Origin: a virus
Virus record (IMG/VR): IMGVR_UViG_3300036790_000270
Span: 1 to 64,000 of that record
DNA: 64,000 nt
Strand: one strand, 5' to 3'
Shown here: positions 20,263 to 48,823 of the stretch, one piece after another
How the letters are laid out: each line of letters begins with the position of its first letter
Numbering within the stretch: position 1 is the first letter of the stretch
The notes under the pieces: generated by a model
Database searches by the model: none
Told to the model about the DNA's origin: nothing
Seen by the model: only the letters and a program-made list of their open reading frames with translations
Program-made: the position numbers and the translations under genes

Positions 20263-20338
20263 TACGCTTACCTGGTAGTGCCCTACGGCCGGTCCCATCC
20301 CCCGGAGCTAGGAGTCCTGACCGAAGGGCGTCCTGGCC
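20263..20338 (+). promoter_or_regulatory. late promoter plus leader hairpin motif A (portal)
   Basis: TACGCT; CCTA-CGG-CCGG...CCGG-AGC-TAGG. Confidence 0.7.
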
Positions 20339-22063
20339 GTGGGGCTGATCGACAACATCCGGGCATCCGCTTACGAAGAGCGGGTGATCGGCGGTGTCCC
20401 GTGGAAGCCCTGGGAGAACCCGTTCTGGCGGTTTGACACCGGCGGCCCGGTGCACCCGACGCGGCAGTTTTACGGGCCGAACGAGGCGATGGGGCTGCCC
20501 GCCCTGTACGCGGGCGTCAAGCTGCTCGCCGACAACGCCGCCTCGCTGCCGCTGCGCGTCTACCAGAATTACAACGACGCCACCGGCTGGCCGAAGCACC
20601 GGCTGTGGAACGGCCCCACCATCTTCGATAAGCCGTCAGTCATCGGGACGTTCTTCGACTGGATGGCGCAGGCGATGGTGTCGGTCCTGCTGCAGGGCAA
20701 TGCCTGGGGGTTCATCTCCGGCAAGGACGGCTACGGGTTCCCGACCGGCATCGAGTGGATTCCGCCGGAGGACGTCTACGTCCTGGAGCCGCAGGACCAG
20801 CAGACCGCCAACCCGCTGCGCGCCAAGGTGTTCGTCTTCGGCCGCGAGGTCACCTGGTACGGTCCCGACGCCGAGGTCTTCCACGTCCGCGGCATCACGC
20901 TGCCCGGCCGCATCGAGGCGATCAGCCCGCTGCGCGCGTTCGCGCTGACGGTCCTGGCGGGCAAGGAGGCCCAGCGGTACGGCACCAGCTGGTACGAGGC
21001 CGGCGGCTTCCCGCCCGGTACCTTCCAGAACGCCGAGATGGAAGTTAACGCAGCTCAGGCGGCTGAGATCCGCGCGTCACTGGTGACCAGCCTGCGGCGC
21101 AGGGAGCCTTTGGTTTTCGGTCGCGACTGGGATTACAAGCCGGTCACCGTGCCGCCGAGCGAGGCGCAGTTCATCGAGGCGATGCAGCTGAACGCCACGC
21201 AGATCGCGGCGATCCTCAACCTGCCGCCCGACCGGCTGGGCGGTACCCGCGGGGACTCGCTGACGTACTCGACGTCGGAGCAGAGCACCCTGCAGATCAT
21301 CGAGGCGCTGCGCCCGTGGCTGACCCGGTTCGAGCAGAGCTTCTTCGACCTGCTGCCCCGCAACCGCTTCACCCGCTTCTACACCGATGCGCTACTGAAG
21401 ACAGACCTGGAAGCCCGGATGAACAACTACCAGGTGATGCGGAACATCGGCATGCGCACCGCTGACGAGATCCGCGAGCTGGAGGACCTGCCGCCGCTGC
21501 CGTCCGGGGTCGGTTCCGAGGAACTGCCACTGACCACCATGAACGCCATGGGCACCCGGGCCGGCGCCATCCCCAAGAGCTTCCTGAAGAGCGTCGTGCT
21601 GGAGATGGACATCGCCGCCGACCGGCTGATCAAGCTGGAGAAGACGATGATCAGCCAGGGCAAGCTACCGCAGGCAACAGCCCCTGCTCCCGGCATGCCA
21701 GGCCAGCCCGGCGCGGGAGGCTCAAGTAGCGGAAGGCCGGGCGCAAGTAGCGCCTCCCCGGCGCCCAGTGCCCCCGTAGGCGGCAAGGTCCCGATCGGGC
21801 TGCCGAATGCCCCGCTGCCGCTCACCCAGGACCCGGCGTCGTTCCTGTCCTCGCTGATCAGCGTGCAGCGCGACATGAGCTGCGACTACGAGATGCGCGA
21901 GCTGGCCCGGCACCTCTACAACTCCATCGCCGAGCGTGCCAACCGGATTGCCCGGGACGAGCCGGACGAGTACGTGCCGTCCTCCCACCTGCTGGCACCG
22001 TGGGTGCCTGGCCGCGACGACCTGCGCGAGGTCATTCTTTCCGCGAACGGGCACCGCAAGTGA
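20339..22063 (+). CDS. HK97-type portal protein with C-terminal extension
   Basis: LLQGNAW, VFHVRG, SPL, EAQFIEA, IAAIL.LPP..LG, MRTADEIRELEDLPP. Confidence 0.93.
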   Translation: MGLIDNIRASAYEERVIGGVPWKPWENPFWRFDTGGPVHPTRQFYGPNEAMGLPALYAGVKLLADNAASLPLRVYQNYNDATGWPKHRLWNGPTIFDKPSVIGTFFDWMAQAMVSVLLQGNAWGFISGKDGYGFPTGIEWIPPEDVYVLEPQDQQTANPLRAKVFVFGREVTWYGPDAEVFHVRGITLPGRIEAISPLRAFALTVLAGKEAQRYGTSWYEAGGFPPGTFQNAEMEVNAAQAAEIRASLVTSLRRREPLVFGRDWDYKPVTVPPSEAQFIEAMQLNATQIAAILNLPPDRLGGTRGDSLTYSTSEQSTLQIIEALRPWLTRFEQSFFDLLPRNRFTRFYTDALLKTDLEARMNNYQVMRNIGMRTADEIRELEDLPPLPSGVGSEELPLTTMNAMGTRAGAIPKSFLKSVVLEMDIAADRLIKLEKTMISQGKLPQATAPAPGMPGQPGAGGSSSGRPGASSASPAPSAPVGGKVPIGLPNAPLPLTQDPASFLSSLISVQRDMSCDYEMRELARHLYNSIAERANRIARDEPDEYVPSSHLLAPWVPGRDDLREVILSANGHRK

Positions 22064-22147
22064 AACGTTGCACGTCAGGTAGCAGGTGCCTACCATTTTC
22101 AATAGACGTGGCGCGTACTGCGCTGTTGCGTTTTAAGGAGACGACAG

Positions 22148-23533
22148 ATGGCTGTTCTTAGCAGCAGCGCACGCGACAACCTCCCCGATTCCGCTTTCGG
22201 TTACATCGAGCCCGGCGGCAAGAAGGTCAACGGCAAGACGGTGCCCGGCAGCAAGCGGCACTTCCCGATCCACGATTCAAATCACGTGAAGAACGCGCTC
22301 GCGCGCATCGCTCAGGGTGCCCGGTTCGGTGACCAGGCCAAGGGGAAGGTCATGGCGGCAGCTAAGCGCATGGGAATCGACCACGACGAGGCCAGCTCCG
22401 GCACCGGCCGTTCCTTCGACTCCCTTTACCCTGAGGTCCGGTTCCTCGCCGACGTCCCCGAGATCCGCAGCATCGGCGACGGCCAGCCCCAGCACATCAC
22501 CGGCTACGCCGCGGCCTTCGGGAAGCTGTCCCGGCGACTCGGCGGCTTCGTCGAGCGCGTCATGCCGACCGCCTTCAACGAGTCACGCGACGCCAACTGG
22601 CCGGACGTCGTCTGCCGGTACAACCACAAGGACGACATGGTCCTCGGCACCACCGCCGCGGGCACCCTCCAGCTGGAGGTGGACGAGCGCGGCCTGCGCT
22701 ACGACGTCGTCCCGCCCAAGCACCGCGCCGACGTGATGGAACTGATCGAGCGCCGCGACGTCCGCTACAGCTCCTTCGCGTTCCGGTGCGCCGTTCCCGG
22801 CACCGATGACGACTGGGGGCTGTCCGACTTCGGCATCCCGCTGCGCTCACTGCACAACACCACGCTGCTCGACACCGCCCCCGTCCTCGACCCGGCCTAC
22901 CGGGACACCTCCGCCGTCGCCCGCAACATGACCGGCGCCGTGGAGTCACTCGCCATGTGGGTGGACGCCGAGCCGGCTGAGGTGCGCAACATGATGGAGG
23001 CAGGCCAGGCCGCCCGCTTCTTCAAGCGCACTGACCGGCCGTCGGCCCCGGGGGCTGAGCCTGTCCCCGTTCCGGAGACCCGGGAGCAGACGATGCTGGA
23101 CGATCCGACTGTCGCCCTCCGGCACTGGACCTACGCCGACGACGACACTGACGTCACCGCTGAGCAGCACGCCGATGAAACGCGGGCGATGCACAACGCC
23201 GACACCATGTGCCGCAAGTACGTGGACGGGGAGCCCTGCGTTCAGGGTGCGGGGCACGACGGCGACTGCAAGGGCCGCTGCTACGGCCGGCCGCACGGGC
23301 TGCCCTGCGCCATGGTCCAGGGGCACGGCGGGGAGCACCAGCCGATGGCTGTCGATGACGGTAACGGCCCCGGCCGCGGGCGTCCCCCCGCGCACCGTGA
23401 CGGCAGTGAGGCAGAAGGCGAAAGCGAGGAGCAGCGTGAGGCTGCTGACCCGGCGGAAAACCGGACGCTGACCGGCCCCGAGGCACTGCTGAAGGCGCTG
23501 GAAATGCGCGGGCAGCTCACCCCGGTCGACTAA
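22148..23533 (+). CDS. HK97-type prohead protease with N- and C-terminal extensions
   Basis: ITGYAAAF, GGFVERV.P.AF, YNH, LGTT.AGTL.L.VDERGLRY, SSFAF, PAY.DT; N-terminal RDNLPDSAF...RHFPIHD..HVKNALAR module. Confidence 0.9.
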   Translation: MAVLSSSARDNLPDSAFGYIEPGGKKVNGKTVPGSKRHFPIHDSNHVKNALARIAQGARFGDQAKGKVMAAAKRMGIDHDEASSGTGRSFDSLYPEVRFLADVPEIRSIGDGQPQHITGYAAAFGKLSRRLGGFVERVMPTAFNESRDANWPDVVCRYNHKDDMVLGTTAAGTLQLEVDERGLRYDVVPPKHRADVMELIERRDVRYSSFAFRCAVPGTDDDWGLSDFGIPLRSLHNTTLLDTAPVLDPAYRDTSAVARNMTGAVESLAMWVDAEPAEVRNMMEAGQAARFFKRTDRPSAPGAEPVPVPETREQTMLDDPTVALRHWTYADDDTDVTAEQHADETRAMHNADTMCRKYVDGEPCVQGAGHDGDCKGRCYGRPHGLPCAMVQGHGGEHQPMAVDDGNGPGRGRPPAHRDGSEAEGESEEQREAADPAENRTLTGPEALLKALEMRGQLTPVD

Positions 23534-23537
23534 GCCC

Positions 23538-23876
23538 GTGGATGACGGCAAGATAGAGCGGCTGCTTCAGGCGATGGAGCAGAGACTCACTGAGAAACTG
23601 GAGATCATCATGTCTGAGCAGAGCCAGCAGCAGATCGACGTCAATAACGCGGGAACGGCCATCATCGCGCTGCTTACTGACATGCAGGCGGACATCAGCA
23701 CGATCGGTACCGGCGTCGCGAGCATCACGGCCGCGCTTGCCGCCCTGCCCGCCTCCGTCGACACCACGCAGCTTGATGCCGACGTCGCGCAGATCGCGGC
23801 AGCGCAGGCGAGCCTCGACGCGGCGGCTGCCTCGGTCGCTAACGCCGTGCCCCCGGTGACCCCGCCCGCGAGCTAA
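23538..23876 (+). CDS. Ala-rich coiled-coil hypothetical protein
   Basis: ORF between the protease and capsid genes. Confidence 0.55.
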   Translation: MDDGKIERLLQAMEQRLTEKLEIIMSEQSQQQIDVNNAGTAIIALLTDMQADISTIGTGVASITAALAALPASVDTTQLDADVAQIAAAQASLDAAAASVANAVPPVTPPAS

Positions 23877-23906
23877 GCTGAAGCCCTCGTCTGGTAGCGA
23901 GGCCCG

Positions 23907-23950
23907 GAACCCTTAATAAGCCCTGTGCTTGTTAAGGGTTCTGCCTTTTC
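23907..23950 (+). terminator. intrinsic terminator
   Basis: GAACCCTTAATAAGC/GCTTGTTAAGGGTTC stem followed by TGCCTTTT. Confidence 0.6.
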
Positions 23951-23969
23951 CGCTGTCAGGTTTGTGCCG

Positions 23970-24046
23970 TAGTCTTGAATTTGAGTTAGCCACGGCCGCG
24001 CGATCTGCGCTGGAGCTGGTCCATCCTGAAACAGGGAGGACTGGCA
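23970..24046 (+). promoter_or_regulatory. late promoter plus leader hairpin motif B (major capsid)
   Basis: TAGTCT; GCCA-CGG-CC...GG-AGC-TGGT. Confidence 0.7.
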
Positions 24047-25414
24047 GTGGCTTCAGACCTTGCCAAGTCGCTTCACGAGCAGGAGCAGGGAGTCTGGGGC
24101 AAGATTCAGTCCCTGGCCATGGCTGCCTCCGCCGAGAAGCGCAGTTTTACCGATGACGAGCAGCGCTCATTCGATGCGATGCACGCTGAGCTGGACGGCG
24201 TTGACAAGCGCCTGCGCGACATCCTTGAGGGTGAGAAGCGCCAGGCACAGACCGACGAGATGTACGCCGGCCTTGAGAAGCGCACGGGCACCCCGGGCAC
24301 GCACCGCCCGCTGAACAAGTTCGAGGAAGAGCTCCGGGCTTTCGCCCGCGGCGAGGTGCGCGCGATCGACGTCATCTCCTCGGAGTCCCGGATCATGCAG
24401 CGGCTGTCCACCGGCCGCCCCGTGAGCCCCACTGAGGTCCGTGTCCTGACCGACGCGTACATGCCGCCCGGCAGCTTTACCAACCAGACAAACGCCGGCA
24501 TCGTCCCGATTGACTTCTACGACCAGCTCCTGAGCTACCTGATTGAAGTCAGCGGCGTCATGCAGACTGGCCCCACGGTGCTGAACACCGCGGGCGGCGA
24601 GCCGATCCAGGTTCCCATTGTCCAGCAGCACACCGGCCTCACCACGGCTGGCGCCCAGGTGACCGTTTCCGCCGCGCAGTCCGCCACCCTGGCGACCGCC
24701 GACCCCGGCTTCGGCCAGAAGACCCTGACGGCGAACAAGTTCGGCATCCTCATTCAGGTCGCGCGGGAGCTGATCGACGACTCCGGCGTCAACCTGCTGG
24801 GCTACCTCGCCATGTCCTCGGGCCGCGCCATCGGTAACGCCCTCGGAAACGCGCTGGTCAACGGCGGCAACGGCATCACCGGGAGCATCCTTGCCGCGCC
24901 CGTCGCGGTTACCGGCGGCTCGGCCTCGGCAGTCAGCGCCACCAACCAGGCGCCCGGCGGCCCGTCCTACTCCAACCTGATCGACATGGAGTACAGCGTC
25001 ATCGCGCCGTACCGCCAGTCGCGGTCCTGCTACTGGCTGGCGGCCGATCACACGCTCGGCAACCTCCGCAAGCTGACTGACGCCATCGGCCGGCCCCTGT
25101 GGGAGCCGTCTACCGTCCTCGGCAGTCCCGACCTCCTGCTCGGCAAGCCGCTGGTCGCCGACCCGTTCATGCCGGCGATGGCCGCGGGATCGAGCATCTA
25201 CCCGATCGCGTTCGGCGACTTCAGCCAGTACTTCGTCCGGATGGTCGGCGGTGTCCGCTTCGAGCGGTCTGACGACTACGCGTTCGGCAGCGACCTGGTT
25301 TCCTTCCGGGCTGTTATCCGCGCCGACGGTAACCTGATGAACCCGCCCGTCTCGGTCACCCCGTCTCTCAAGGGCCAGCCGCTCGTGCTGTTCCAGAGTG
25401 CGGCAACGGGCTGA
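24047..25414 (+). CDS. HK97-fold major capsid protein
   Basis: coiled-coil delta domain, VARELIDDSGVNL, LRKLTDAIGRPLW, LLGKP, AFGDFSQY, FRAVIRADG. Confidence 0.93.
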   Translation: MASDLAKSLHEQEQGVWGKIQSLAMAASAEKRSFTDDEQRSFDAMHAELDGVDKRLRDILEGEKRQAQTDEMYAGLEKRTGTPGTHRPLNKFEEELRAFARGEVRAIDVISSESRIMQRLSTGRPVSPTEVRVLTDAYMPPGSFTNQTNAGIVPIDFYDQLLSYLIEVSGVMQTGPTVLNTAGGEPIQVPIVQQHTGLTTAGAQVTVSAAQSATLATADPGFGQKTLTANKFGILIQVARELIDDSGVNLLGYLAMSSGRAIGNALGNALVNGGNGITGSILAAPVAVTGGSASAVSATNQAPGGPSYSNLIDMEYSVIAPYRQSRSCYWLAADHTLGNLRKLTDAIGRPLWEPSTVLGSPDLLLGKPLVADPFMPAMAAGSSIYPIAFGDFSQYFVRMVGGVRFERSDDYAFGSDLVSFRAVIRADGNLMNPPVSVTPSLKGQPLVLFQSAATG

Positions 25415-25449
25415 TATAAACTAGGAACTCCAGTAGCCGCGGGGTTCAG

Positions 25450-25490
25450 GAGAGGGCTCCTGCTTATTACGATGAAGCAGGAGCCCTCTC
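25450..25490 (+). terminator. 16-bp hairpin after the capsid gene
   Basis: GAGAGGGCTCCTGCTT/AAGCAGGAGCCCTCTC. Confidence 0.6.
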
Positions 25491-25508
25491 TGCCGTACAG
25501 GAGATGAC

Positions 25509-26024
25509 ATGAAGGCTGTCCGGCTTACGCACTCCTGCTGGCTGAACGACCGCGTGCACGGGGATACGGGTGCCATCCTGTTTCTTGAGGATGATGAAGC
25601 GCACGGCCTTATCGTCGTTGGCCTGGGCATGCACGCTCCCGAGCATGAAATCGGCTCTGGCCCTGAGGCGGCGCAGGAGATCCCGGTCGTCAAGCGAGCG
25701 GATGCCCCCACTCCGGACGAGGTACTGGACCAGGCTGACATCAGCTTCGTCGGTCCGGAGGCGGCAGCGGCGCGCATGCAGGAGCTCGTCGACCTGACCG
25801 AGGAGCTGGGCCTGTACGACATCCCGGCGGACGACGCAGCCGCCGCGCTGGAGGAAGCCAGGCACGGGCAGCCGGAAATGACGAGGCCCTGGACGACCGC
25901 GGCAAAGGCCGACTGGATCAGCTGGGCGGTGCACGGCAATCACGGGCAGCCGCCGACAACTGCGGAAAACGCGGCGCTCCTGACGAAAAGCCAGCTGATG
26001 TCCCGCTATGGCGAACGGCTGTGA
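25509..26024 (+). CDS. hypothetical head-associated protein
   Basis: AGGAG RBS; C-terminal P...AAKADWISWAV...TKSQLM module seen after capsid genes in actinophages. Confidence 0.65.
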   Translation: MKAVRLTHSCWLNDRVHGDTGAILFLEDDEAHGLIVVGLGMHAPEHEIGSGPEAAQEIPVVKRADAPTPDEVLDQADISFVGPEAAAARMQELVDLTEELGLYDIPADDAAAALEEARHGQPEMTRPWTTAAKADWISWAVHGNHGQPPTTAENAALLTKSQLMSRYGERL

Positions 26025-26067
26025 CCCTCCTACACTAGAGGCATAGCGACCAGCAAGGAGTCCTCTC

Positions 26068-26598
26068 ATGGCCACTGTCAACGACGGCACCAACCCGGGC
26101 CGCAGCCCGCAGCCCGCGCGGCAGTCACCGGGCCGTACGCGCCACGGCCGTGCTGAGGCCGGCCTAGACCCGACTAACGAGCTCGGCCAGGTGCCGGGTG
26201 AGATCTTCGGCTTCTCCCAGACCTACGCGACCGGCGCCCGCGGCTCTTCCGGCAGCGGCTCCGTCCCGGCTGACGTCACCATCCAGAAGGGCCAGCTCGA
26301 CTCGGGCCTGTCCAACGTTGACGGTAGCGAGATCACCTCAACGGGTGCCCCTGGCAGTACGGGCGCGTCTAACCACGGCGGCGGCGAGACGGTCACCTAC
26401 ACCGACTTCTTCGGTTACATGGGCCAGGAGCACCGTGAGTCCTCGACTACCGGCCGCATCGACGGCGACGGCGACTGGACGCAGTTCGGGGAAGGCAGCG
26501 GCTTCAGTGGCCCCACCCTGCCGATCCTGCAGAACGCCCGGCCCACCTCTACCGGTGCCGGCCAGGGTCACGTCCGCGGGGCCGGCCGGGGCGTGTAA
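26068..26598 (+). CDS. Gly/Ser/Thr-rich hypothetical protein
   Basis: AAGGAG RBS; TACACT upstream. Confidence 0.65.
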   Translation: MATVNDGTNPGRSPQPARQSPGRTRHGRAEAGLDPTNELGQVPGEIFGFSQTYATGARGSSGSGSVPADVTIQKGQLDSGLSNVDGSEITSTGAPGSTGASNHGGGETVTYTDFFGYMGQEHRESSTTGRIDGDGDWTQFGEGSGFSGPTLPILQNARPTSTGAGQGHVRGAGRGV

Positions 26599-26783
26599 TG
26601 GCGAAGGACGAGTCGGGCGTGCGGTGGCCGGCGTGGCCTGTCGTCGGCGCCGTGGGCGCGAACGGGAACTACGACCCGGCAGCGGCGCTCCCGCGCGCTT
26701 CTGATTTCACCCTGACCCCGTCCGGGATTGCCGAGCAAGAGGCAGCGGTACCGCAGGAGGCACCCGATGCAGGACCTGAGTGA
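26598..26783 (+). CDS. small hypothetical protein
   Basis: TAATG coupling. Confidence 0.5.
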   Translation: MAKDESGVRWPAWPVVGAVGANGNYDPAAALPRASDFTLTPSGIAEQEAAVPQEAPDAGPE

Positions 26784-27024
26784 GCACGCCCGCGGCAGCC
26801 TCGCCATGAGCAGCAGCATGGCGGGCGGCAACGTCCTGTCGGAGATCCCCAAGTTCGGGTCGCCGGGCAGCCCGTCAGAGCAGACCTCTGACATCCCCTG
26901 GGGTCCCTCGCACAATGACCCTGAGCCGCAGATCGGCGCGCCGTCGGGTGCGCACACTGATACCAAGACGGGCGGCAGCGGCGAGTACCCGCTTTCCCCG
27001 CGAGCCTGGAAGAAGGTGCCGTAA
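26767..27024 (+). CDS. small Gly/Pro/Ser-rich protein
   Basis: AGGAGG RBS before MQDLSEH. Confidence 0.55.
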   Translation: MQDLSEHARGSLAMSSSMAGGNVLSEIPKFGSPGSPSEQTSDIPWGPSHNDPEPQIGAPSGAHTDTKTGGSGEYPLSPRAWKKVP

Positions 27025-27299
27025 TGGCGGCTAGCTGGGGACCAGTTGAGCGCCCTGCGGGGCGAGGCGGCCGGCCGATCGGCGCAGAGGGCACTGTCAC
27101 GCAGCCGTCAGAGGGCAGCCTGGGGGCCGGGCCGCATCACGAGGTCCGCTACGACGCGACCGACGGGCGGCACGGGCGCGAGTCCGGCATGCACCCGTGG
27201 GAGTCGGTTGACCCGATGTCCGGCCCAACCGCGAATACCGACTTCGGCCAGTCAGCCGGCCGGTTCCCCGACGGCCCCGGTGCCTGGCGCCAGACCTGA
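27024..27299 (+). CDS. small Gly/Pro-rich protein
   Basis: TAATG coupling. Confidence 0.55.
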   Translation: MAASWGPVERPAGRGGRPIGAEGTVTQPSEGSLGAGPHHEVRYDATDGRHGRESGMHPWESVDPMSGPTANTDFGQSAGRFPDGPGAWRQT

Positions 27300-27300
27300 C

Positions 27301-27690
27301 GTGACGCGCGTCATCAAGACGGCCATCGTGTTCATCGCGGTGGCCGTCGTTTTCTGCCTGGCCGCCGTGTACGACCGGGTTATCCTGCATTTCCTCGGCT
27401 GGGACGGGCAGACCAGCGACAATTACGCTGCCTGGTCCGGGTCGGTCCCTGCCCTGATCTCCGCGGTCGGGCTGTCTACGCTGATCACCGGCATGTGGTC
27501 ACATGTTAACTGCCATGAGCCGGGCTGCTTCCGGATCGGCAAGCACAAGGTAAGCGGGACGCCCTGGTGCACCGTTCACCATGAGCATGCCCGCCCGGAG
27601 CGCAGTGAGCACGAGATCCTGGCCTCCATCGAGGCGAGCATGACGGAGCTGCTGAGCCTGCTGCGGGCGCAAGCCGGCGAGCCGCATTGA
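27301..27690 (+). CDS. two-TM membrane protein with a C/H motif
   Basis: GTG at 27301; two hydrophobic helices, then CHEPGC...WCTVHH. Confidence 0.6.
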   Translation: MTRVIKTAIVFIAVAVVFCLAAVYDRVILHFLGWDGQTSDNYAAWSGSVPALISAVGLSTLITGMWSHVNCHEPGCFRIGKHKVSGTPWCTVHHEHARPERSEHEILASIEASMTELLSLLRAQAGEPH

Positions 27691-28043
27691 ACGTGCACCA
27701 CAAGCGGATGCTGAAGCTATTCGGGCTGGTGGCTGCGCTGGTGGTGGTTCTCGGCACCGTGTACGGCGAGGTAACCCCGGCTGGCCCGTGGGACGGCATG
27801 TACTTCGCCGTGGTAACCGTGACGACCGTCGGGTACGGCGACATCGTCCCGCACGGCTGGGCCGCGCACCTGGTCGCCCTGGCGATCATGATCCTGATCA
27901 TCCCCGCCTGGGCCAGCGTGTTCTCCCTGCTTACCACCGCTATGCTGGCCAGCCACGTAGACGCGCAGACTCACCGCCAGACTGCCGAGATCAAGGAGCA
28001 CGTCAGTGACACTATGGGCAACGCGCAAGCCGGGCAGCAGTGA
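27687..28043 (+). CDS. KcsA-like two-TM potassium channel
   Basis: TM1, pore helix WDGMYFAVVTVT, selectivity filter TVGYGD-IVP, TM2. Confidence 0.88.
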   Translation: MNVHHKRMLKLFGLVAALVVVLGTVYGEVTPAGPWDGMYFAVVTVTTVGYGDIVPHGWAAHLVALAIMILIIPAWASVFSLLTTAMLASHVDAQTHRQTAEIKEHVSDTMGNAQAGQQ

Positions 28044-28281
28044 CCTCATTACCGTCAGCATGACCTACGGCCCGATTACCGCCGCGGTTGAAGAGAACAG
28101 TGGTCACTTGCTTAGTTTCTGGCATGAGCTCGGCCGCCTGGTTGCCGTGCAGGACAACGAGAAGCGCGCGCAGGCCGGCTGGCAGCGGTACGCAGCGCAT
28201 CACACGGACGGCCCTATGCCTACCTGGGAGGGACTGCACGAGGAAGAACGCCAGCACTGGATTGCCGCGTTCACGGAATAG
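28006..28281 (+). CDS. hypothetical protein
   Basis: AAGGAG RBS; MPTWEGL.EEERQHWIAA motif. Confidence 0.55.
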   Translation: MTLWATRKPGSSDLITVSMTYGPITAAVEENSGHLLSFWHELGRLVAVQDNEKRAQAGWQRYAAHHTDGPMPTWEGLHEEERQHWIAAFTE

Positions 28282-28372
28282 CCCGCCTGGGGGTGGCGCG
28301 GTGGTTAGCTCCAGTCAGCGCTGTTCCCCGACGGGGGTGACTGGAATGCCGTGCTGGGCTAGGCTGTGCCTC

Positions 28373-28789
28373 ATGAATAGTACTAGATGGTTTAACGGGG
28401 TAGTTCCGATGCCTAGCGTGTTGGCGATCACGGCTTACCTGTCTTACGAGTCTTTCACTGTTCAATACGGGAACGGTGAGTTCGGTCTAGCTGACTACTC
28501 GACAGCAGCAGATGTAGACACAGCAGTTGCGACGTTTGTTGAGGATGCGGGATTCCCGTGGATTGCTGTCGGTAGCGCGGGAAATATTCCGGATAACGAC
28601 AACGAAGTAGTTAACTGGACGCTCGCCATCAATCTCGGTAGTTGGGCGCTAACTTCATTGTCGGATAGTGGAGACGGACTAAGGGTTAACGGTAGCGGGA
28701 GTACGCCGGGTTACGCTCCGTGGGATAACTTTGCTGATGCCATGGCCGCGATCCTGTCTATCACGGGAAATTCTGCGTGGCCATCGTAG
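28373..28789 (+). CDS. hypothetical protein with lower GC
   Basis: AT-richer codon usage than its neighbours; start uncertain (28373 or 28409). Confidence 0.5.
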   Translation: MNSTRWFNGVVPMPSVLAITAYLSYESFTVQYGNGEFGLADYSTAADVDTAVATFVEDAGFPWIAVGSAGNIPDNDNEVVNWTLAINLGSWALTSLSDSGDGLRVNGSGSTPGYAPWDNFADAMAAILSITGNSAWPS

Positions 28790-29490
28790 AACCTGTCCAC
28801 TGGTACCATTTCTTCTGCGGTAATGACGTTCTCTCCATGTGGGACGTGCCGCTCACTGAGCACGTCGCTGGCCTGCGCTCCGCTGGCTTTGACGGGAAGT
28901 GCTTGGTCGGTCTTGTCGGTGGTGCGGGGCAACAGGAAGACGCCCGGCGGTGGCTTGCTGCGTACTGGCCGGAAGCTGAAATCGCAGTAACGGCAGAAGA
29001 CGGCTTTGAACAGGTGACCCTAGCCGCACTGCACATGTGGTGTCAGGATGCCGACCCGGAAATACCAGTTTTTTACGGGCACACGAAGGGCGCTTTCTCT
29101 AACCACCCTGTTGCTGCCCCGTGGCGCCGGGCGATGACCGCAGTGTGCGTTGCCCGGTGGCGGGATCGCGTGGCTGACCTGGCGGCCGTTGACGCGGCCG
29201 GGCTGCACTGGCTGACACCGGAGGCATTTCCCGGTTACGTGAGCAGCCCGTTCTTCGGGGGTAACTTCTGGTGGGCGACAGCCGGGTACCTCGCGTCCCT
29301 CGCCCCGGTAGACCCCGGGGACGTTAACCGCTACAGCGCGGAAAGCTGGGTCGGCACCGGGAACCCGGTAGTGCGAGCGCTCAGCACCGCATGGCCGGAG
29401 TACGCGGGCTGCACCTTCCCGCCGGGGCGGCCGTTATGCGTATCCTCGCGTCGCACGACGGCGGCTCAGGGTGCAGCTGGTACCGGATGA
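28777..29490 (+). CDS. putative glycosyltransferase-like protein
   Basis: FEQVTL, YGHTKGA, FFGGNFWWA and AESW motifs seen in phage glycosylation loci. Confidence 0.55.
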   Translation: MAIVEPVHWYHFFCGNDVLSMWDVPLTEHVAGLRSAGFDGKCLVGLVGGAGQQEDARRWLAAYWPEAEIAVTAEDGFEQVTLAALHMWCQDADPEIPVFYGHTKGAFSNHPVAAPWRRAMTAVCVARWRDRVADLAAVDAAGLHWLTPEAFPGYVSSPFFGGNFWWATAGYLASLAPVDPGDVNRYSAESWVGTGNPVVRALSTAWPEYAGCTFPPGRPLCVSSRRTTAAQGAAGTG

Positions 29491-30503
29491 TCATGCCGCT
29501 GACCGCGGTGAACGACCTCGCTGACGGGATCAGCGTTACATTCCGGGCTGGCGGCGGGAAGCTGATGAAAAACCCGCACCCCATGGTGACGGTCGCTGAC
29601 GGTGATAATGCCGACCTGGTTGTCTCCCAGCGGGCCAGTGAGTACCGCGGCCTCGGCCTGTGGCGCCGGTGGGGCAGCTCCCCGGCGCGGCGCACCGTTT
29701 ACGAGAACGACGACGACGTCTTCTCCATCACCCCGGAGAACGATGCTGCCTACGCTTCCTACAAAGAAGGCACCGACGTCCGGGAGGCGACCCTCCGCTA
29801 CTGCCGCACCGCCAACCTGATCACCACCACCAGCCCGCACCTAGGCGACCGGTTCCGGGAAATGTGCCCGCAGGTCCCGGTGGAGGTGCTGCCCAACTAC
29901 ATTCCCCGATGGGTCCTAGACTTGCCGCGAGACCCATTCGACAGGCGGCTCCGGATCGGCTGGGCCGGCGGCTCCTCGCACGCGCGGGACATCCACACCG
30001 CGACGTCGTCGGTCCGCCGGTTCATGACGCGGTTCCCCGGCTGGGACCTGTACCTGAACGGCATCGACTACCGGCGCCAGTTCCGCTGCCCGCCCGAGCG
30101 GTCCTTCCACGTCCCGTGGATACACGTTACCGACGAGCCGCAGCTTTACTACCGGGCTATCGACTTCGACATCGGCATCTGCCCGCTGCTGTCCACCCAG
30201 TTCAGCCGGTCCAAGAGCTGGATTAAGTCACTGGAGTACTTCAGCCGGGGCATTCCCGTCGTGGCCAGCGACGTCGAGCCGTACCGCCGGTTCATCGACC
30301 ACGGTGTCGACGGGTTCCTCTGCAAGACCGACCATGAATGGCTGAAGTACCTGTCCCTGCTGGCGGGCGATGAGGAACTCCGGCTGAAGATGGGCGCCGC
30401 GGCGAAAATGAAGGCTTCCGCTAACGTCATGGAAGACCATGTGCAAGAGTGGGTCAACGCTTACACGATGCTGTTCCCGATCGGCTGGGAGTATAAGGGC
30501 TGA
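29436..30503 (+). CDS. GT-B (GT4-like) glycosyltransferase
   Basis: GCSWYR, YENDDD, IGWAGGSSH, DIGICPL...KSWIKSLEY...GIPVVASDV.PY...DGFL. Confidence 0.85.
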   Translation: MRILASHDGGSGCSWYRMIMPLTAVNDLADGISVTFRAGGGKLMKNPHPMVTVADGDNADLVVSQRASEYRGLGLWRRWGSSPARRTVYENDDDVFSITPENDAAYASYKEGTDVREATLRYCRTANLITTTSPHLGDRFREMCPQVPVEVLPNYIPRWVLDLPRDPFDRRLRIGWAGGSSHARDIHTATSSVRRFMTRFPGWDLYLNGIDYRRQFRCPPERSFHVPWIHVTDEPQLYYRAIDFDIGICPLLSTQFSRSKSWIKSLEYFSRGIPVVASDVEPYRRFIDHGVDGFLCKTDHEWLKYLSLLAGDEELRLKMGAAAKMKASANVMEDHVQEWVNAYTMLFPIGWEYKG

Positions 30504-35882: not shown

Positions 35883-35947
35883 TAACCTTGAGCTGAACCG
35901 CCCTACGGCCGCATCCGGAGCTAGGGCACCCGACGAAGGGTGTCCAC
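35883..35947 (+). promoter_or_regulatory. late promoter plus leader hairpin motif C
   Basis: TAACCT; CCCTA-CGG-CCG...CGG-AGC-TAGGG. Confidence 0.7.
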
Positions 35948-36268
35948 GTGCGTGATATTCCGCTGATCGCTCCGCAGCCGCAGGGCTGGTACTGCCCCAA
36001 CTGCCTCGTCACCGACGTCACCGCGCCGCTGCCACCGGGCCAGTCGCGCTATCACGCCTGCGCGGGCCTGCACGGGCTGAATGCTCCCCTGATCCGGTCG
36101 GGCCTGGACGCCAAGGTTGAGGCTGAGGAGCGCCAGGACTACCTCAACGGCGACCAGCAGGCGACCGGTGACGACGGCAAGGTCTACATGGCCGTGCGGA
36201 CCACCCGCGATGACGGCGACGACGTGACCGTATTCGCGGGCCTCGCCCACGCAGAGATGAAGGTGTGA
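35948..36268 (+). CDS. hypothetical protein (WYCPNC...HAC)
   Basis: 106 aa ORF following motif C. Confidence 0.65.
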   Translation: MRDIPLIAPQPQGWYCPNCLVTDVTAPLPPGQSRYHACAGLHGLNAPLIRSGLDAKVEAEERQDYLNGDQQATGDDGKVYMAVRTTRDDGDDVTVFAGLAHAEMKV

Positions 36269-38734: not shown

Positions 38735-38806
38735 TAAACTCAAGGGGAACTGCCGCGGCCTGAACCAGGAGCCGGCATCGGGATTGACCACGATGCCGGA
38801 GTCCTG
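38735..38806 (+). promoter_or_regulatory. late promoter plus leader hairpin motif D
   Basis: TAAACT; TGCCG-CGG-CCTG...CAGG-AGC-CGGCA. Confidence 0.7.
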
Positions 38807-39223
38807 ATGACGATCCTCCTGTCCAGCACTTTCACCGACAACCTGCTCGGCACGGGAACTGAGGGCGTCGCCACCCAGATCGGCAGCGGCACGCTCATTA
38901 TTTACAGTGGCGCTGCCCCGGCGGGCCCGAACGAGTCCCTGTCCGGCAACACGGCGCTGGCGACTTTTACGTTCTCAGTTGCGGGCAGCCAGGGCTCTCC
39001 GGCCGGCGGCGTGATGGACCTGGCGTTCTCCGCTACCACTGTCACCGCCGCCGCCTCCGCGACCGCGACGTTCTTCCGCATTGCCAGCTCGGGCAGCACC
39101 GCCCTGATCCAGGGGACGGTAGCTGTCAGCGGCGGGGACTTCAACCTGTCCAGCACGGCCATCACCTCCGGCGACAACGTAACCATTACCGGCACGCCGA
39201 CGATCTCCTGGCCGGTGAGCTAA
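38807..39223 (+). CDS. minor virion structural protein
   Basis: GTLIIYSG..P...ATFFRI...QGTV..SGGD.NL. Confidence 0.7.
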   Translation: MTILLSSTFTDNLLGTGTEGVATQIGSGTLIIYSGAAPAGPNESLSGNTALATFTFSVAGSQGSPAGGVMDLAFSATTVTAAASATATFFRIASSGSTALIQGTVAVSGGDFNLSSTAITSGDNVTITGTPTISWPVS

Positions 39224-44523: not shown

Positions 44524-44997
44524 GTGAACCTGACGGTTATCAGGGCCGCGCTCGCCGCGCAGGTCAACGCGGTAGCCTCGCCCGCGCTGCGCATGCTGCC
44601 CGAGCCCGAGGACCAGATCAACCCGCCCGTCGGGATCGTCATGCCGGGGCGCCCGTACGTTGACTACGCCACCACGCTGCAGGGCGAAACGGGGTTCGGG
44701 CCGGTTCTCGGCGGTACCGCGACCCCGCTGTCGGAGACGAACTTCAACCTGGACATCCTGGTCCTGATCTCGCACGCCTCCACCCTGGAGCGGATCGAGC
44801 AGAACCTGGACGCGTGGCTCGGCCTGGAGAACGACGGCACGGCCGTGTCAGTTGCCGCCGCGGTCTTGTCTGACATCACCCTCGGCGGTACCGTCCGCTG
44901 GTGCATCCCGACGACCGCTGACGCACCGGGTCCCCTTGCCTGGAGCGGCCCCGAGGCATTCGGCAGCCGCGTCCACCTGCAGTTGTCCGCCTTGTGA
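44524..44997 (+). CDS. tail terminator-like protein
   Basis: IRAALAAQ...LDAWL...SVAAAV.SD.TLGG.V; position in the operon. Confidence 0.65.
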   Translation: MNLTVIRAALAAQVNAVASPALRMLPEPEDQINPPVGIVMPGRPYVDYATTLQGETGFGPVLGGTATPLSETNFNLDILVLISHASTLERIEQNLDAWLGLENDGTAVSVAAAVLSDITLGGTVRWCIPTTADAPGPLAWSGPEAFGSRVHLQLSAL

Positions 44998-45290
44998 TGG
45001 CGCACGCTTACCTGTCGACCGCCTGCTATCACAGCAAGCACGGCGTCTTGTGCCGCCAGACGTGCAAGTACTGTGACGCGCCCTGCTCGTGCACCTGCCA
45101 CCGGGGCATTCTCCCGGTACCGTGGGTCGATCAGGCGCGAGCCGTTGCTGCGGAGCTGTTCAGCGCGATTTACCCGGCTGACGTGCCCGATGCCCTAGCG
45201 CAGCGAATCGAGACTGACCCGGCCTTGTTCTGGCTGCGCGGCGAGATAGCACCGGACGGGCAATGGCACGAACCTGGGGACGAGGGTTAG
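44994..45290 (+). CDS. Cys/His-rich small protein
   Basis: HAYLSTACYH..H..C...CKYC...C.C.CH. Confidence 0.6.
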   Translation: MMAHAYLSTACYHSKHGVLCRQTCKYCDAPCSCTCHRGILPVPWVDQARAVAAELFSAIYPADVPDALAQRIETDPALFWLRGEIAPDGQWHEPGDEG

Positions 45291-46363
45291 TGGCGCGCAT
45301 CCTGCTGGTGCAACCGGGCCCGGACTTCTCCGTTGCCGACGTTTACCGCGGCTGGCAGAAGGCGCTGACCGCGCTCGGTCACACGGTGATGGCGTACAAC
45401 ACCAGCGACCGGCTGACCTTCTACGGCCGCACCCGGATGCCCGAGCACGACAAGCCCGCCTGCGAGCACTGCGGTGAGGTGCCGACCAGGCAGGCGGTGC
45501 CCGACAGCAACGGCATCCTGGCCCTCGGCATGGACGGGCTGTACGCCACCCTCAACAAGTTCTGGCCGGACATCGTGTTCTTCATCTCGGGTTTCTACCT
45601 GACCCCGGCGATTCTCCAGTTCATCCGCACCCGGCGGCACAAGATCGTCTTCCTGCACACTGAGTCGCCGTACCAGGACGAGGAACAGCTGCAGCGCGGT
45701 GAGTTCGCGGACCTGAACCTGCTGAACGACCCCGCGAACATCAGCGCGTGGAAAGACCTGGACGTCCCCGTCGCGTACATGCCGCACGCCTACGACCCGG
45801 GCATTCACTACCCGGCCAGCCCGCGTAACTATGAGGCTGACTTCGCGTTCGTCGGCACCGGGTTCCGCTCGCGCCAGGAGTTCTTCCACCAGATGGACCT
45901 GGACGGGCTCAGCGTCGTCCTCGGCGGCAACTGGGCGAACACCGAGCCGGAGTACCGCCACCTGCTGAAGTACCTTGGCCACCCGCTGGAAGCCTGCGTC
46001 GGCAACGAGGAAACCGCCCGCGTCTACCGGCTCGCTAAGGCCGGCATCAACTTCTACCGGCGGGAATCAGAGGACGCGCACGCTGGCGAAGGCTGGGCGA
46101 TGGGGCCACGGGAAGTGGAGATGGCCGCCTGCGGCTTGTTCTTCCTGCGTGACCCGCGGCCGGAGTCCGACGAGGTTTTCGGCCGGTGCCTGCCCGCGTT
46201 CGGCTCAGCTGACGAGGCATCTCAGGAACTCCGTTACTGGACGGGTAACGACGCCCTGCGCGAGCGCTATGCGGCGCAGGCACGCGAGCGGATCGTAAGC
46301 CGCACGTTCAGCAACAATGCCAGGGCGGCACTCAACCTGATGGAAGAGGCGGGAATACTGTGA
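45290..46363 (+). CDS. CgeB-like (Glyco_trans_1_2) glycosyltransferase
   Basis: TESPY, YMPHAYDP, AFVGTG..SR, YRLAKAGINF, REVEMAACG. Confidence 0.8.
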   Translation: MARILLVQPGPDFSVADVYRGWQKALTALGHTVMAYNTSDRLTFYGRTRMPEHDKPACEHCGEVPTRQAVPDSNGILALGMDGLYATLNKFWPDIVFFISGFYLTPAILQFIRTRRHKIVFLHTESPYQDEEQLQRGEFADLNLLNDPANISAWKDLDVPVAYMPHAYDPGIHYPASPRNYEADFAFVGTGFRSRQEFFHQMDLDGLSVVLGGNWANTEPEYRHLLKYLGHPLEACVGNEETARVYRLAKAGINFYRRESEDAHAGEGWAMGPREVEMAACGLFFLRDPRPESDEVFGRCLPAFGSADEASQELRYWTGNDALRERYAAQARERIVSRTFSNNARAALNLMEEAGIL

Positions 46364-46682
46364 GCGACAGCTGGATGTGCGGGTACCGGTGGCAGGACGG
46401 GGATAACACCGAGCTGCACGAGACGCATGTCTGCGGCCTGCTGACCAACGGCGGCCAGCACACGCACGACTGCATTGTCTCGGTGTGCCGGGGGACGCAG
46501 TGATCTGCCAGCCGTGCCGGGACAACGCCCACGACGTGTGCCCCGAAGTAGCGCGCCGGGAGCACCGGGCTGACCTGAACGCCATTGAGCTTAAGGGCGG
46601 CCCGTGGTGTGACTGCCAGCACAAGCCGCGGGCTGAAGTGCAGCGCCGCATGTAGCCCTATCCCGGCAGGCAGAGCGCCGCT

Positions 46683-46763
46683 TACACTAGATAAGTAGAG
46701 CCGAGGCCACGTGTTACCACGTCGGAGCCGGACCCGTTCCTTTTTTCGGAAAAGGGGTCTGAC
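46683..46763 (+). promoter_or_regulatory. late promoter plus leader hairpin motif E (major tail)
   Basis: TACACT; CCG-AGG-CC-ACGTG...CACGT-C-GG-AGC-CGG. Confidence 0.7.
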
Positions 46764-47216
46764 GTGGGAAGAATCCACGGTCGCAACGGCATGGTCTATA
46801 TGGCCCTGCTCGCTCAGGGCACCGCGCAGCCACTCGCTTACGTCAGTGACTGGACCATGAACTTCACCGTGGCGAAGGTGGACGTCACTGCCCTCGGCGA
46901 CGCCAACCTCGTCTGGGTAGCCGGCCTGCCCGACGCCTCCGGTGACTTCACCGGTTTCTTCGACACGGCGACTTCGCAGACCTACCAGTCCGCGGTTGAC
47001 GGCCAGCCTCGTAACTTCTACCTGTACCCGACGCTCGTCGCGGTCAACGGCGGCCCCGGAAACGCGACCGTCAACGTCGGCCAGTACTTCTTCGGCACGA
47101 TCCTCCCCGACTTCAGTTCCGCTGGCGGAGTTGCCGCCGCGGTCACCATGAAGTCAACCTGGAACGCTGCCTCCCAGGTGCAGCGGTACCCGAGCACGGG
47201 CGTTCCCGGAACCTGA
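46764..47216 (+). CDS. major tail protein
   Basis: RIHGRNG.VY...DVTALGD...VAGLPDASGDFTGFFD; position before the chaperone and TMP genes. Confidence 0.8.
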   Translation: MGRIHGRNGMVYMALLAQGTAQPLAYVSDWTMNFTVAKVDVTALGDANLVWVAGLPDASGDFTGFFDTATSQTYQSAVDGQPRNFYLYPTLVAVNGGPGNATVNVGQYFFGTILPDFSSAGGVAAAVTMKSTWNAASQVQRYPSTGVPGT

Positions 47217-47228
47217 TCCTGACGTGGC

Positions 47229-47262
47229 GACGGCCCTTTCCCCGGACAGGAAAAGGGCCGTC
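47229..47262 (+). terminator. terminator-like hairpin after the major tail gene
   Basis: GACGGCCCTTT/AAAGGGCCGTC. Confidence 0.6.
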
Positions 47263-47325
47263 TCCGGATGGCGTTGGAACGCTGGGTTTCGTGTGCTCTT
47301 TGGCCTCCGGTGAAACTCACCCTAT

Positions 47326-47823
47326 ATGAGCGAACCGGAGAATTCAGTGCCCCCTCGCAAGACCCGTACCGTCGCGCCGCGCCCCGTTCAGGACGTCCCG
47401 CTGGAGGGCGAGGAGCCGGTCAAGGTGGACGGCCGGACCAGTGCCGCCCGGCAGGCCCGCCGCCTGCAGATGGCGACCGCGGAGGAAAAGGTGCGGCTGC
47501 CCGAGGAGGAGCGCGCCGTTGAGGTGACCGACGGGCAGCTGGTCGCGCCGATCAAGGAGAAGTACTTCCGGCTGCAGGAGTCCCTCGGCCTGATGCCGCT
47601 GATGGAGTGGGCGGCGGCGCAGGACGACCTGGACGCCGACAACCAGGTGCAGCTGGCCGGCCTGTTCCGGTTGCTGAAGGACCTGGTCGCGCCGGAGGAG
47701 TGGGCGGAGTTCCGCAGCTTCACCCGGGAAGCCAAGTGCATCGATGAGGACTTCATCGGCTTCGTCAACGCCGGGATGGAAGCGATGGCGGCCCGCCCTA
47801 CCGGGGAGCCCGCAGCCTCCTGA
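47326..47823 (+). CDS. tail assembly chaperone (G)
   Basis: between major tail and TMP; ends ...AARPTGEPAAS. Confidence 0.75.
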   Translation: MSEPENSVPPRKTRTVAPRPVQDVPLEGEEPVKVDGRTSAARQARRLQMATAEEKVRLPEEERAVEVTDGQLVAPIKEKYFRLQESLGLMPLMEWAAAQDDLDADNQVQLAGLFRLLKDLVAPEEWAEFRSFTREAKCIDEDFIGFVNAGMEAMAARPTGEPAAS

Positions 47824-48272
47824 AGTGGCTGCTGGCGAACTTCGCCAAGGTAAACGGTGACTTCCTGCGCGCTCACGGGCACGGCGTCGAGATGCTGTCG
47901 GCCCGTGAGCTGTGCGACGTCGCCTACGCCGCGATCATCGCGGACATGGAGCGTCACCATTACGCCCTGGTGGCTGCCGGGGCGCAGTGGAAGGACAGCC
48001 GGGACCCGCTCGGGGACGACATCGCCCGGTTCGAGGAGCGCATCGGGCTGCGGGACAACCCGGAGGCCCTCGCCCTCGCCCTGCACAAGCAGTTCCTCGC
48101 CGACCAGGGCAAGGAATGGGATGACACGCCTGTCGGCGCCGGGAACGGCGAGTGGTGGGACCAGGACGCCGAGTTCACTGACATGCGTGACCTGGACGCC
48201 GAGGCGAAGCGGCGCGCTGCGGCAGCGAAGAACTACGGGCTGTTCGCCAAGGACCGGAAGGGTAAAAAGTAG
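47796..48272 (+). CDS. tail assembly chaperone (T part, probably reached by -1 frameshift)
   Basis: the -1 frame is open from CGCCCTAC (47794-47801) through LLKWLLANF into ORF 47892..48272. Confidence 0.6.
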   Translation, partial: PYRGARSLLKWLLANFAKVNGDFLRAHGHGVEMLSARELCDVAYAAIIADMERHHYALVAAGAQWKDSRDPLGDDIARFEERIGLRDNPEALALALHKQFLADQGKEWDDTPVGAGNGEWWDQDAEFTDMRDLDAEAKRRAAAAKNYGLFAKDRKGKK

Positions 48273-48274
48273 TC

Positions 48275-48673
48275 ATGGCAGAGGTGAACCTGGACGCGGT
48301 GGCGATGGACTGGCTGCTGAACGACCCGGCCGGGCCGGTCGGCGTGCTGATCGCGGACATGTCGGAGAAGGCAGCCGCGATTGCCCGGACCGCTGCACCC
48401 GTCATGGTGACCGGCTCGCGCTGGCCGCCGAGCAACTTCTCGCACTGGGGGAAGGCTTTCAACCCGCGCTTCCAGTACGGTGACACGGGCCCGGGTGACA
48501 CGCGGGCGAGTGTGCGGTGGTCCGGGTTCCTGTACAACGGTCTCGGCCAGATGTACTCCGGGGTGAACGTCAACTACGGGCCGACGCTGTACCTGCAGCA
48601 GGGCGGCGGCCGGCACGGGCACGCGATCCGGCACCCGTTCATGACCACGGCGCTGGATACGGTGCAGCTGTGA
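48275..48673 (+). CDS. putative tail/neck protein
   Basis: LLNDP.GPV...ARTAAPV...HPFMTTALD resembles HK97 gp10-like proteins. Confidence 0.55.
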   Translation: MAEVNLDAVAMDWLLNDPAGPVGVLIADMSEKAAAIARTAAPVMVTGSRWPPSNFSHWGKAFNPRFQYGDTGPGDTRASVRWSGFLYNGLGQMYSGVNVNYGPTLYLQQGGGRHGHAIRHPFMTTALDTVQL

Positions 48674-48749
48674 GCACTGCCGGGCGTAGGTCGTATGGGT
48701 TCCGTAACTGCATTGGCCCGGCAGCTACGCAGTAGAGCGCCCGTCCCCG

Positions 48750-48823
48750 TAGGGTTATTCCGAATGCCGCGGCCTGAACTCCGGGAGCCGGCCTGATCCC
48801 CGCTCCAGAGGAGATGGCGACCG
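48750..48823 (+). promoter_or_regulatory. late promoter plus leader hairpin motif F (tape measure)
   Basis: TAGGGT; GCCG-CGG-CCTG...CGGG-AGC-CGGC. Confidence 0.7.

Follow-up and report, generated by a model that had tools for sequence, protein, structure and literature searches.

A family of leader hairpins with an NGG/AGC internal loop upstream of capsid and other genes in uncultured soil phages

We analyzed a 64-kb stretch of viral DNA (hereafter, the window), which forms the opening part of an uncultured virus record of 117,211 bp and 66.6% G+C (IMG/VR record IMGVR_UViG_3300036790_000270), and found that copies of one hairpin precede its portal, major capsid, major tail, and tape measure genes, as well as several others. 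We named this family of cis-acting leader hairpins, which would be carried in mRNA, the NGG/AGC-loop hairpin. Collectively, our data strongly support it as a real, uncatalogued cis-regulatory RNA family in a large clade of uncultured soil phages, whose members probably help to set the amounts of the proteins encoded downstream. A preliminary description of the window, made from its letters alone, had reported a leader RNA switch upstream of six virion-region genes. The observation itself was confirmed by our analysis, and the interpretation given to it was partly supported.

Architecture and invariant loop of the hairpin

Reading of the six reported sites, whose boxes begin at positions 20263, 23970, 35883, 38735, 46683, and 48750, showed the same architecture in each. 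A TAnnnT box is followed after 10-13 nucleotides (nt) by an outer stem of 3-5 bp, (C/A)GG, CC, a variable short hairpin, GG, AGC, and the second arm of the outer stem, complementary to the first. The 117-kb genome was searched with a covariance model (R1) built from 33 single-loop instances, in which only the outer stem and the CC/GG pairs are specified. This search returned nine sites at 21.8-38.8 bits, scores that are not independent of the model since all nine sites are among its training rows. The next match, at 19.4 bits, lies inside an open reading frame (ORF) and has no box, and the rest reached at most 17.6 bits. The three sites that had been missed (14901-14875 on the minus strand, and those at genome positions 67227 and 97578) were turned up by a loose structural descriptor and scored by R1. 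A divergent seventh candidate proposed at 54486-54526 contains neither NGGCC nor GGAGC, went unreported by R1 even at E ≤ 10, and was therefore discarded. The loose descriptor is approximately 2-fold enriched in the genome (14 matches versus 6.3 ± 2.5 in shuffles), and the short core GGCC..GGAGC alone occurs at chance frequency (40 versus 37.3 ± 5.1). Given these modest counts, the case for the element rests on its full architecture and on the comparison with relatives.

In the single-loop alignment (33 sequences; outer stem and CC/GG pairs), 90% of the cells are paired, and sliding the partner by 1-3 columns drops pairing to 14-58%. Changes on both sides of a pair occur in 28 cells versus 8.5 in shuffles, and the covariation score was reached by none of 500 shuffles, which bears out the covarying outer stems that had been read from the six sites. 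In one relative, the CC..GG pairs are replaced in a compensatory manner by UC..GA. The inner hairpins had been described as differing in sequence and length while still pairing; indeed, they are more stable than their own shuffles in all 33 instances. The single-loop form is found in close relatives, and more distant ones carry a long, double-loop form (GGCC, then GUAGC, a hairpin, GGAC, and then GGAGC), for which a second model, R2, was used in searches. This long form shows compensatory changes in 11 of its 16 pairs, and none of 500 shuffles reached any of five measures. Wobble counts in the stems (52 G.U versus 10 A.C), together with the fact that every copy is co-oriented with its gene, indicate folding as sense-strand RNA. 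Folding energy alone gave no significant strand preference (P = 0.16).

The 3x3 internal loop, 5'-NGG opposite 5'-AGC, is closed by C-G pairs and, as reported earlier, is nearly fixed. GG and AGC are present in every alignment row (33/33 and 29/29), and N is C, A, or U but never G, with A in 17/33 and 12/29 rows. Since the GG and AGC letters were required when instances were picked for the alignments, unbiased support for the loop comes from capsid loci that were selected solely by protein similarity. A search of IMG/VR with the capsid protein found 223 relatives, of which the best 80, at 50-90% identity, were kept; 79 of these have upstream sequence, and they provide 57 distinct leaders. The core was found within 110 nt before the capsid start in all 79 loci.

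Around this loop, the helix is short, with an outer part of 3-6 bp, the 2 bp of CC/GG, and an inner part of 3-7 bp (~9-14 bp in total), and the outer stem is plain, without a further conserved loop. The apical part varies in sequence and length (6-40 nt), and the whole element spans 25-60 nt. The second loop of the long form is the same module inverted, its AGC lying on the 5' strand and its NGG on the 3' strand, and it sits above the first loop at a distance of 4 bp, or of 7-8 bp in one subgroup. Because the spacing between them varies, we infer that the two loops are independent copies of one module, not a fixed dimer site.

The preliminary description had not recognized the motif as a catalogued one, and the databases agree. 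At the gathering thresholds of Rfam 15, the whole window yielded only tRNA, and 13 relative loci (72.8 kb) yielded no match. Around the capsid leader, a search at E ≤ 10 gave two unrelated chance matches only. A full-text search of the literature found no description of the element; this search did not cover the supplementary tables of one survey (PMC10690425), and the motif could be among the candidates of that survey. The survey describes more than ten thousand unnamed candidate structured RNAs from viral contigs, five of which lie upstream of one capsid family. The hairpin may also help to locate capsid, portal, and tail genes by sequence in a large group of uncultured soil phages.

The nine copies and their counterparts in related phages

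All nine copies are co-oriented with a downstream start codon, which they precede by 25-45 nt. The downstream genes were annotated by PHROGs and Pfam. Site A (TACGCT box 20263-20268, hairpin 20282-20312, leader to 20338, plus strand; 21.8 bits) precedes the portal gene (PHROG 12), which begins with GTG at 20339. Directly 5' of the portal promoter and leader lie two tandem tRNA-Ser genes (20056-20227; anticodons GCT and AGA), the first of which is the only one that Rfam reports. Site B, on the same strand (TAGTCT box 23970-23975, hairpin 23989-24020; 38.8 bits), leads the gene for the major capsid (major head) protein, whose GTG is at 24047, and a helix occluding the Shine-Dalgarno (SD) and start region extends to 24046.

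The next four sites are likewise on the plus strand. Site C (TAACCT box 35883-35888, hairpin 35902-35925, leader to 35947; 26.1 bits) is followed by a gene at 35948-36268 encoding a Cys-containing protein of 106 aa that falls into neither a Pfam nor a PHROG family. Site D (TAAACT box 38735-38740, hairpin 38752-38776, leader to 38806; 25.7 bits) leads a virion structural gene (38807-39223; PHROG 3758). At site E (TACACT box 46683-46688, hairpin 46700-46732, leader to 46763; 30.5 bits), the outer stem has 3 bp and the loop is AGG/AGC; the gene behind it encodes the major tail protein (46764-47216). Site F (TAGGGT box 48750-48755, hairpin 48766-48792, leader to 48823; 26.7 bits) precedes the tape measure gene (48824-54334).

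The remaining copy in the window, site H, is on the minus strand (TAAGCT box 14917-14912, 10-nt spacer, hairpin 14901-14875; 24.3 bits) and reads ACCG-CGG-CC[..]GG-AGC-CGGT. The ATG of its downstream gene (14848-13895, minus strand; 317 aa, PHROG 19005, function unknown) lies 26 nt after the hairpin. Two further R1 matches, sites I and J, lie beyond the window at genome positions 67227-67250 and 97578-97602, the latter leading a primase/polymerase-type gene of 1241 aa. A 123-aa gene of unknown function completes the set of genes behind the nine copies. Virion genes thus predominate behind the element without being the only ones there, and the earlier reading of it as a late switch for structural genes is too narrow. 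On a rough gene map, three of the copies (14901 on the minus strand, 67227, and 97578) stand at the head of gene blocks preceded by genes of the opposite orientation. Downstream of the 97578 copy there is also a 13-codon ORF (genome 97642-97683) with a good SD sequence. Its stop codon overlaps the GTG of the 1241-aa gene (GTGA), which suggests either translational coupling or a mis-set start.

A TAnnnT box lies 9-13 nt upstream of the stem at eight of the nine sites in this genome, the ninth having CATACT (random rate, 2%; binomial P = 2e-13). No common -35 element was seen by eye at the nine sites; absence of a -35 element is common in high-G+C actinobacterial promoters. Several relatives have a canonical TTGCAC-N17-TAnnnT directly upstream of the hairpin, which supports the box as a -10 element. 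Among the 57 unique capsid leaders, 11 carry TTGnnn-N16-18-TAnnnT just upstream and 24 carry a strict TAnnnT near the hairpin, and many distant relatives have no adjacent box. The TAnnnT boxes are putative promoters, as judged from their sequence and spacing. If transcription starts 6-8 nt after the box, as is usual for a -10 element, only 2-6 nt would separate the hairpin from the 5' end of the transcript. For window positions 20000-29999, a look through sequencing runs listed three soil DNA runs, one of which may be the source, and no RNA run.

Simple scans for sigma-70 promoters and for terminators matched their shuffled controls in count. Two terminator-like hairpins are visible, one at 22078-22126, after the portal gene, and one at 23906-23949 (GGAACCCTTAA..TTAAGGGTTC, with a 15-nt loop and then a T-rich run), just before the capsid promoter box. 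The latter was missed by the simple scan owing to its long loop, and its 3' half is conserved in close relatives.

Beyond the capsid leaders, the position of the element is conserved at other genes of related phages. The major tail ortholog carries it in four genomes (G001, G002, G005, and G007) and in two additional matches from a pattern scan, and the orthologs of the 317-aa and 106-aa genes carry it in G001 and G002. In addition, the tape measure ortholog has a site in G002, and a copy in the portal leader was found in G010 and in four pattern-scan matches. The scan in question searched IMG/VR for the long form by DNA pattern only and returned 102 stretches. Among the best 80 of these, 63 have the hairpin 34-66 nt upstream of a capsid homologue, 4 have it before a portal gene, and 2 before a major tail gene; 9 have it before none of these genes, and 2 are too near a contig end.

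Copy numbers range from 1 to 7 per genome across ten relatives. Two genomes with 83-84% capsid identity have 6 and 7 copies, three at 57-65% identity have 1-3, and five long-form genomes of 104-210 kb have 2-5. One relative, 98% complete, carries the element just once, in front of the capsid gene. Every copy in the relatives is co-oriented with its downstream gene. The capsid copy is located directly after genes of the protease/scaffold region. The distance from the hairpin to the start codon is 33-49 nt in most leaders (66-70 nt in a few) and is kept better across the family than adjacency to a promoter, which links what the element does more closely to the ribosome-binding region than to the promoter.

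Several leaders share further short motifs. Many relatives (L016-L056 and others) have a box reading A(C/T)TGAA(C/T) located 3' of the -10 element and 5' of the hairpin, and AACAGRAAATC is found directly 5' of the stem in a subgroup of them. GATGCC is conserved 5-12 nt 3' of the hairpin in several intermediate and long-form leaders (L025-L033, L047, L054, L079, L083, L087, and L088). It resembles the 5' outer arm, and judging by this resemblance it could compete for the 3' arm. One long-form copy in G010 (L152, G010:63752-63800; 29 bits with R2) carries GGAAC where other copies have GGAGC, and its 5' strand is altered as well. With no ORF of at least 40 aa starting in the ~100 nt downstream, it may be a decayed or divergent copy.

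Among GenBank phages, there was no near-DNA match to any phage, and the capsid protein is <32% identical to any entry; thus, no cultured relative is close. Only three capsid relatives were found in cellular genomes, at 46-51% identity, on contigs of metagenome-assembled genomes (MAGs) labelled Gemmataceae, Micromonosporaceae, and Sciscionella. In the two of these contigs that were examined (46-47% identity; Gemmataceae and Micromonosporaceae), the NGG/AGC hairpin is absent upstream of the capsid gene, so that they provide neither a prophage copy nor a firm host. In place of the hairpin, these two contigs share a different leader, GGCAGGG..ACCCACCTC (L124:1008-1177 and L125:3831-4000), and the A(C/T)TGAA(C/T) box is present in the hairpin-less L124 (47% identity). 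Some of the Pfam matches in the phage genome have an actinobacterial flavour, namely, Rv2632c-like, HTH_17/Rv2175c winged helix-turn-helix, Ku, and DUF3631 (genome 68447-68959, 105415-105618, 109441-110433, and 111920-113104). Together with the fact that two of the three closest cellular-bin capsid matches are in actinobacterial MAGs, they hint at a possible actinobacterial host.

A predicted alternative helix over the ribosome-binding site

The preliminary description had pointed to mutually exclusive hairpins covering the SD/start region at five of its six sites, with a weaker equivalent at site F. In agreement with this, RNAalifold, applied to nine close and seven intermediate capsid leaders, kept the inner hairpin and replaced the outer stem by a long helix, in which the GC of AGC and the 3' arm pair with the SD/start region. 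Changes within this helix are mostly one-sided (G.U/G-C), and the few compensatory ones are in its apical part. At site A, the partner of the 3' arm in the alternative helix is the stretch ahead of the portal start, and at site D the alternative helix is a perfect one of 9 bp (CCGGCAUCG/CGAUGCCGG).

We then scored the duplex between the 12 nt starting from the GC of AGC and the 26 nt around the start codon in 52 leaders. The cognate duplex scored -11.2 kcal/mol versus -7.5 kcal/mol for a shuffled arm (P = 4e-8) and was modestly stronger than duplexes with non-cognate leaders (-9.5 kcal/mol; P = 0.03). This signal arises from sites A-E of the phage itself and from its close and intermediate relatives. 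Cognate and non-cognate values were -18.5 and -9.7 kcal/mol at site A, -17.2 and -10.1 at B, -16.8 and -9.1 at C, -20.9 and -9.0 at D, and -14.2 and -9.0 at E. At site F, where the helix is weak, they were -10.4 and -9.6. Among 23 leaders of the lineage, which include 14 non-capsid sites of relatives, cognate duplexes averaged -14.0 versus -11.0 kcal/mol for non-cognate ones (P = 0.003). Forcing the hairpin to form reduces pairing of the ribosome-binding site (RBS) at six of the nine sites in this genome.

Given these data, the most likely mechanism, to which we give about even chances, is that binding of a protein to the NGG/AGC loop regulates how ribosomes reach the downstream gene, and perhaps also stability, in this phage mostly by favoring the hairpin over the RBS-occluding helix. 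According to this proposal, the invariant 3x3 loop would be the docking site for a protein that is either phage-encoded or a universally conserved host protein. The copy 33-49 nt before the major capsid start would be the ancestral and most conserved one, from which the element would have spread to nine transcription-unit leaders in the lineage of this phage. The hairpin would sit almost at the 5' end of the transcript, and in about half of the lineage leaders its 3' arm could pair alternatively with the SD/start region. Translation would then be switched on by any factor that locks the hairpin and so frees the RBS.

Several observations weigh against this proposal. Nearest-neighbor folding of the nine sites never places the hairpin in the minimum-energy structure; its formation costs 1.6-16.8 kcal/mol, and its ensemble probability is at most 0.13. 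The model behind these values has no means of scoring the non-canonical loop, and alternative pairings are always on offer in GC-rich leaders. The alternative helix is specific (at least 3 kcal/mol better than non-cognate pairing) in 10 of the 23 lineage leaders and is not so in the other 13, including sites H, F, I, and J, and in long-form relatives the cognate and non-cognate duplexes score about equally. The copy that precedes the replication gene (1241-aa primase/polymerase) is a poor fit to a purely late-gene role.

With respect to a partner, Pfam matched no RNA-binding, sigma, RNA polymerase, or antiterminator domain in 50 non-structural proteins, a scan outside which ~45 other called genes fell. 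Most of the scanned proteins are orphans, which makes this negative result weak evidence. Among the genes downstream of the element, PHROGs and Pfam revealed no regulator. Small basic or Cys-rich orphan proteins are present in the phage, and none of them could be singled out as a partner.

Since the helix is non-specific in 13 of 23 lineage leaders and missing from double-loop relatives, RBS gating is not the universal mechanism of the family. The start-occluding hairpins described earlier are thus borne out at five of the six sites, and are also kept in relatives, but do not extend to the family as a whole. The switch is a lineage-specific addition and not part of the family core.

The preliminary description drew an analogy with phage Mu, in which the zinc-finger protein Com activates translation of mom. 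The likeness lies in a hairpin beside a start-occluding stem, such that stabilization of the upstream hairpin opens the RBS, and it is seen at sites A-E and in close relatives. However, Mu controls a single target gene through a zinc-finger activator that is known, whereas the phage element has nine targets and, where Mu has a defined Com site, a conserved internal loop. In addition, the occluding stem is absent in half of the leaders and in distant relatives, and the 50 scanned proteins include no known RNA-binding domain. Autoregulation by the P22 scaffolding protein is comparable as mRNA-level control of head-protein synthesis; we know of no RNA operator defined for it, and the phage element differs in that it also precedes tail, portal, and replication genes.

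To our knowledge, little is known about how head:tail protein ratios are set post-transcriptionally in tailed phages. Nine leaders sharing one element would make up a ready-made regulon in one lineage, and the invariant loop offers a precise handle toward the partner. If the partner is a phage protein, it would represent a new family of post-transcriptional late regulators, and if it is a host protein such as Ffh, a new phage route to exploit a core cellular machine.

Alternative explanations and known systems

The hairpin might instead be a 5'-terminal mRNA stabilizer, protecting abundant transcripts from 5'-end-dependent decay, or a processing signal that marks cleavage in the manner of the T7 RNase III sites. 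We consider this unlikely, although the predicted 5' end, 2-6 nt before the stem, and the enrichment of the element before the genes of the most abundant virion proteins (capsid and major tail) would suit it. T7 has about ten internal-loop hairpins between its genes, and the ompA leader places a stabilizing hairpin near the mRNA 5' end. Such roles have no need of a fixed sequence, yet GG and AGC are invariant across 50-90% capsid identities. Furthermore, RNase III substrates require approximately two helical turns, of which the 9-14 bp found here fall short, and many distant relatives lack the adjacent -10 box.

Somewhat more doubtful still is a processive antitermination element of the lambda nut (with N) or HK022 put type, in which the nascent hairpin, with or without a small phage protein, would load on RNA polymerase and let it pass terminators in long operons. 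Like nut and put, the copies in this genome are promoter-proximal sense-strand hairpins repeated at the heads of several units of one phage. They lie right behind -10 boxes, three of them (14901 on the minus strand, 67227, and 97578) head gene blocks after oppositely oriented genes, and the terminator-like hairpins at 22078-22126 and 23906-23949 lie within or between the units. However, this layout at operon heads is matched in this genome only. Across the family, the position of the hairpin tracks the start codon (33-49 nt in most leaders) better than the promoter, with a TAnnnT box near it in 24/57 leaders, and the single, capsid-only copy of the 98%-complete relative is gene-specific rather than operon-initial. 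The fold differs as well: the conserved part is internal, and the apical loop varies, unlike that of boxB, and a single stem with one or two internal loops is not the two-stem put fold. No Q- or N-like domain was present in the 50 proteins scanned.

The internal loop also resembles the symmetric loop of domain IV of the signal recognition particle (SRP) RNA of bacteria (RF00169). A hairpin mimicking it could dock the M domain of host Ffh (SRP54) and thereby gate, localize, or protect structural-gene mRNAs, or titrate SRP late in infection. Ffh binds SRP RNA through its symmetric and asymmetric loops (PMC5115805). The Rfam consensus, aligned to E. coli ffs, places CAGG across from AGCA, with a 3-bp helix and GGAA as the closure. 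In both RNAs, GG on the 5' strand thus faces AGC within an internal loop that Watson-Crick pairs close apically, and the A is shared as well where N is A (17/33 and 12/29 rows). Relatives show the loop variants CAGG/AGC and GAGG/AGCG, and a universal host partner would suit the conservation of the loop over AT-rich to GC-rich phage leaders.

We nonetheless judge mimicry of SRP RNA to be quite improbable. RF00169 gave no match at E ≤ 10 in the 117-kb genome, under a search whose control was positive in 13 of 14 genomes. The SRP loop is 4x4, whereas that of the phage is 3x3 in most copies, the fourth position being Watson-Crick paired, and N is variable where the SRP consensus has A. The asymmetric loop is absent from the phage element, as is a GNRA tetraloop at three pairs above the symmetric loop, and the second loop of the long form is inverted. 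SRP RNA is a stable RNA, whereas the hairpin lies inside an mRNA leader. Moreover, a five-letter match can arise by chance, and the phage encodes no SRP54 M domain. We therefore treat the likeness as a shared loop module that may point to a partner, without assigning the element to the SRP RNA family.

A signal recognized as double- or single-stranded DNA, such as an operator, a promoter-downstream element, or a cruciform, would account for the fixed spacing to the TAnnnT box in this genome. It is very improbable given that the stems co-vary without sequence conservation, that only the sense strand folds well (52 G.U versus 10 A.C), and that the adjacent box is missing in many relatives. It is hardly credible that the hairpins belong to the TIGR-Tas guide-RNA system of the phage, with solo units in the same intergenic gaps, because the array repeats (TGGGTTCCG and TGGCCCGGC types), which flank two 9-nt spacers, share neither sequence nor architecture with NGGCC..GGAGC, and because the hairpin, found in 79/79 capsid relatives, is distributed far more widely than the Tas system of this one genome, even though the latter does contain TIGR arrays of 37-nt tandem units (L103:11060-11541) and a solo unit with both repeat types (48696-48722) ~30 nt upstream of the site F -10 box, in the plus-strand sense.

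Apart from the hairpin and its neighborhood, the leftward accessory-gene block of the window includes an unusual phage cargo, a GMC-family FAD oxidoreductase of 514 aa (2696-4240, minus strand).

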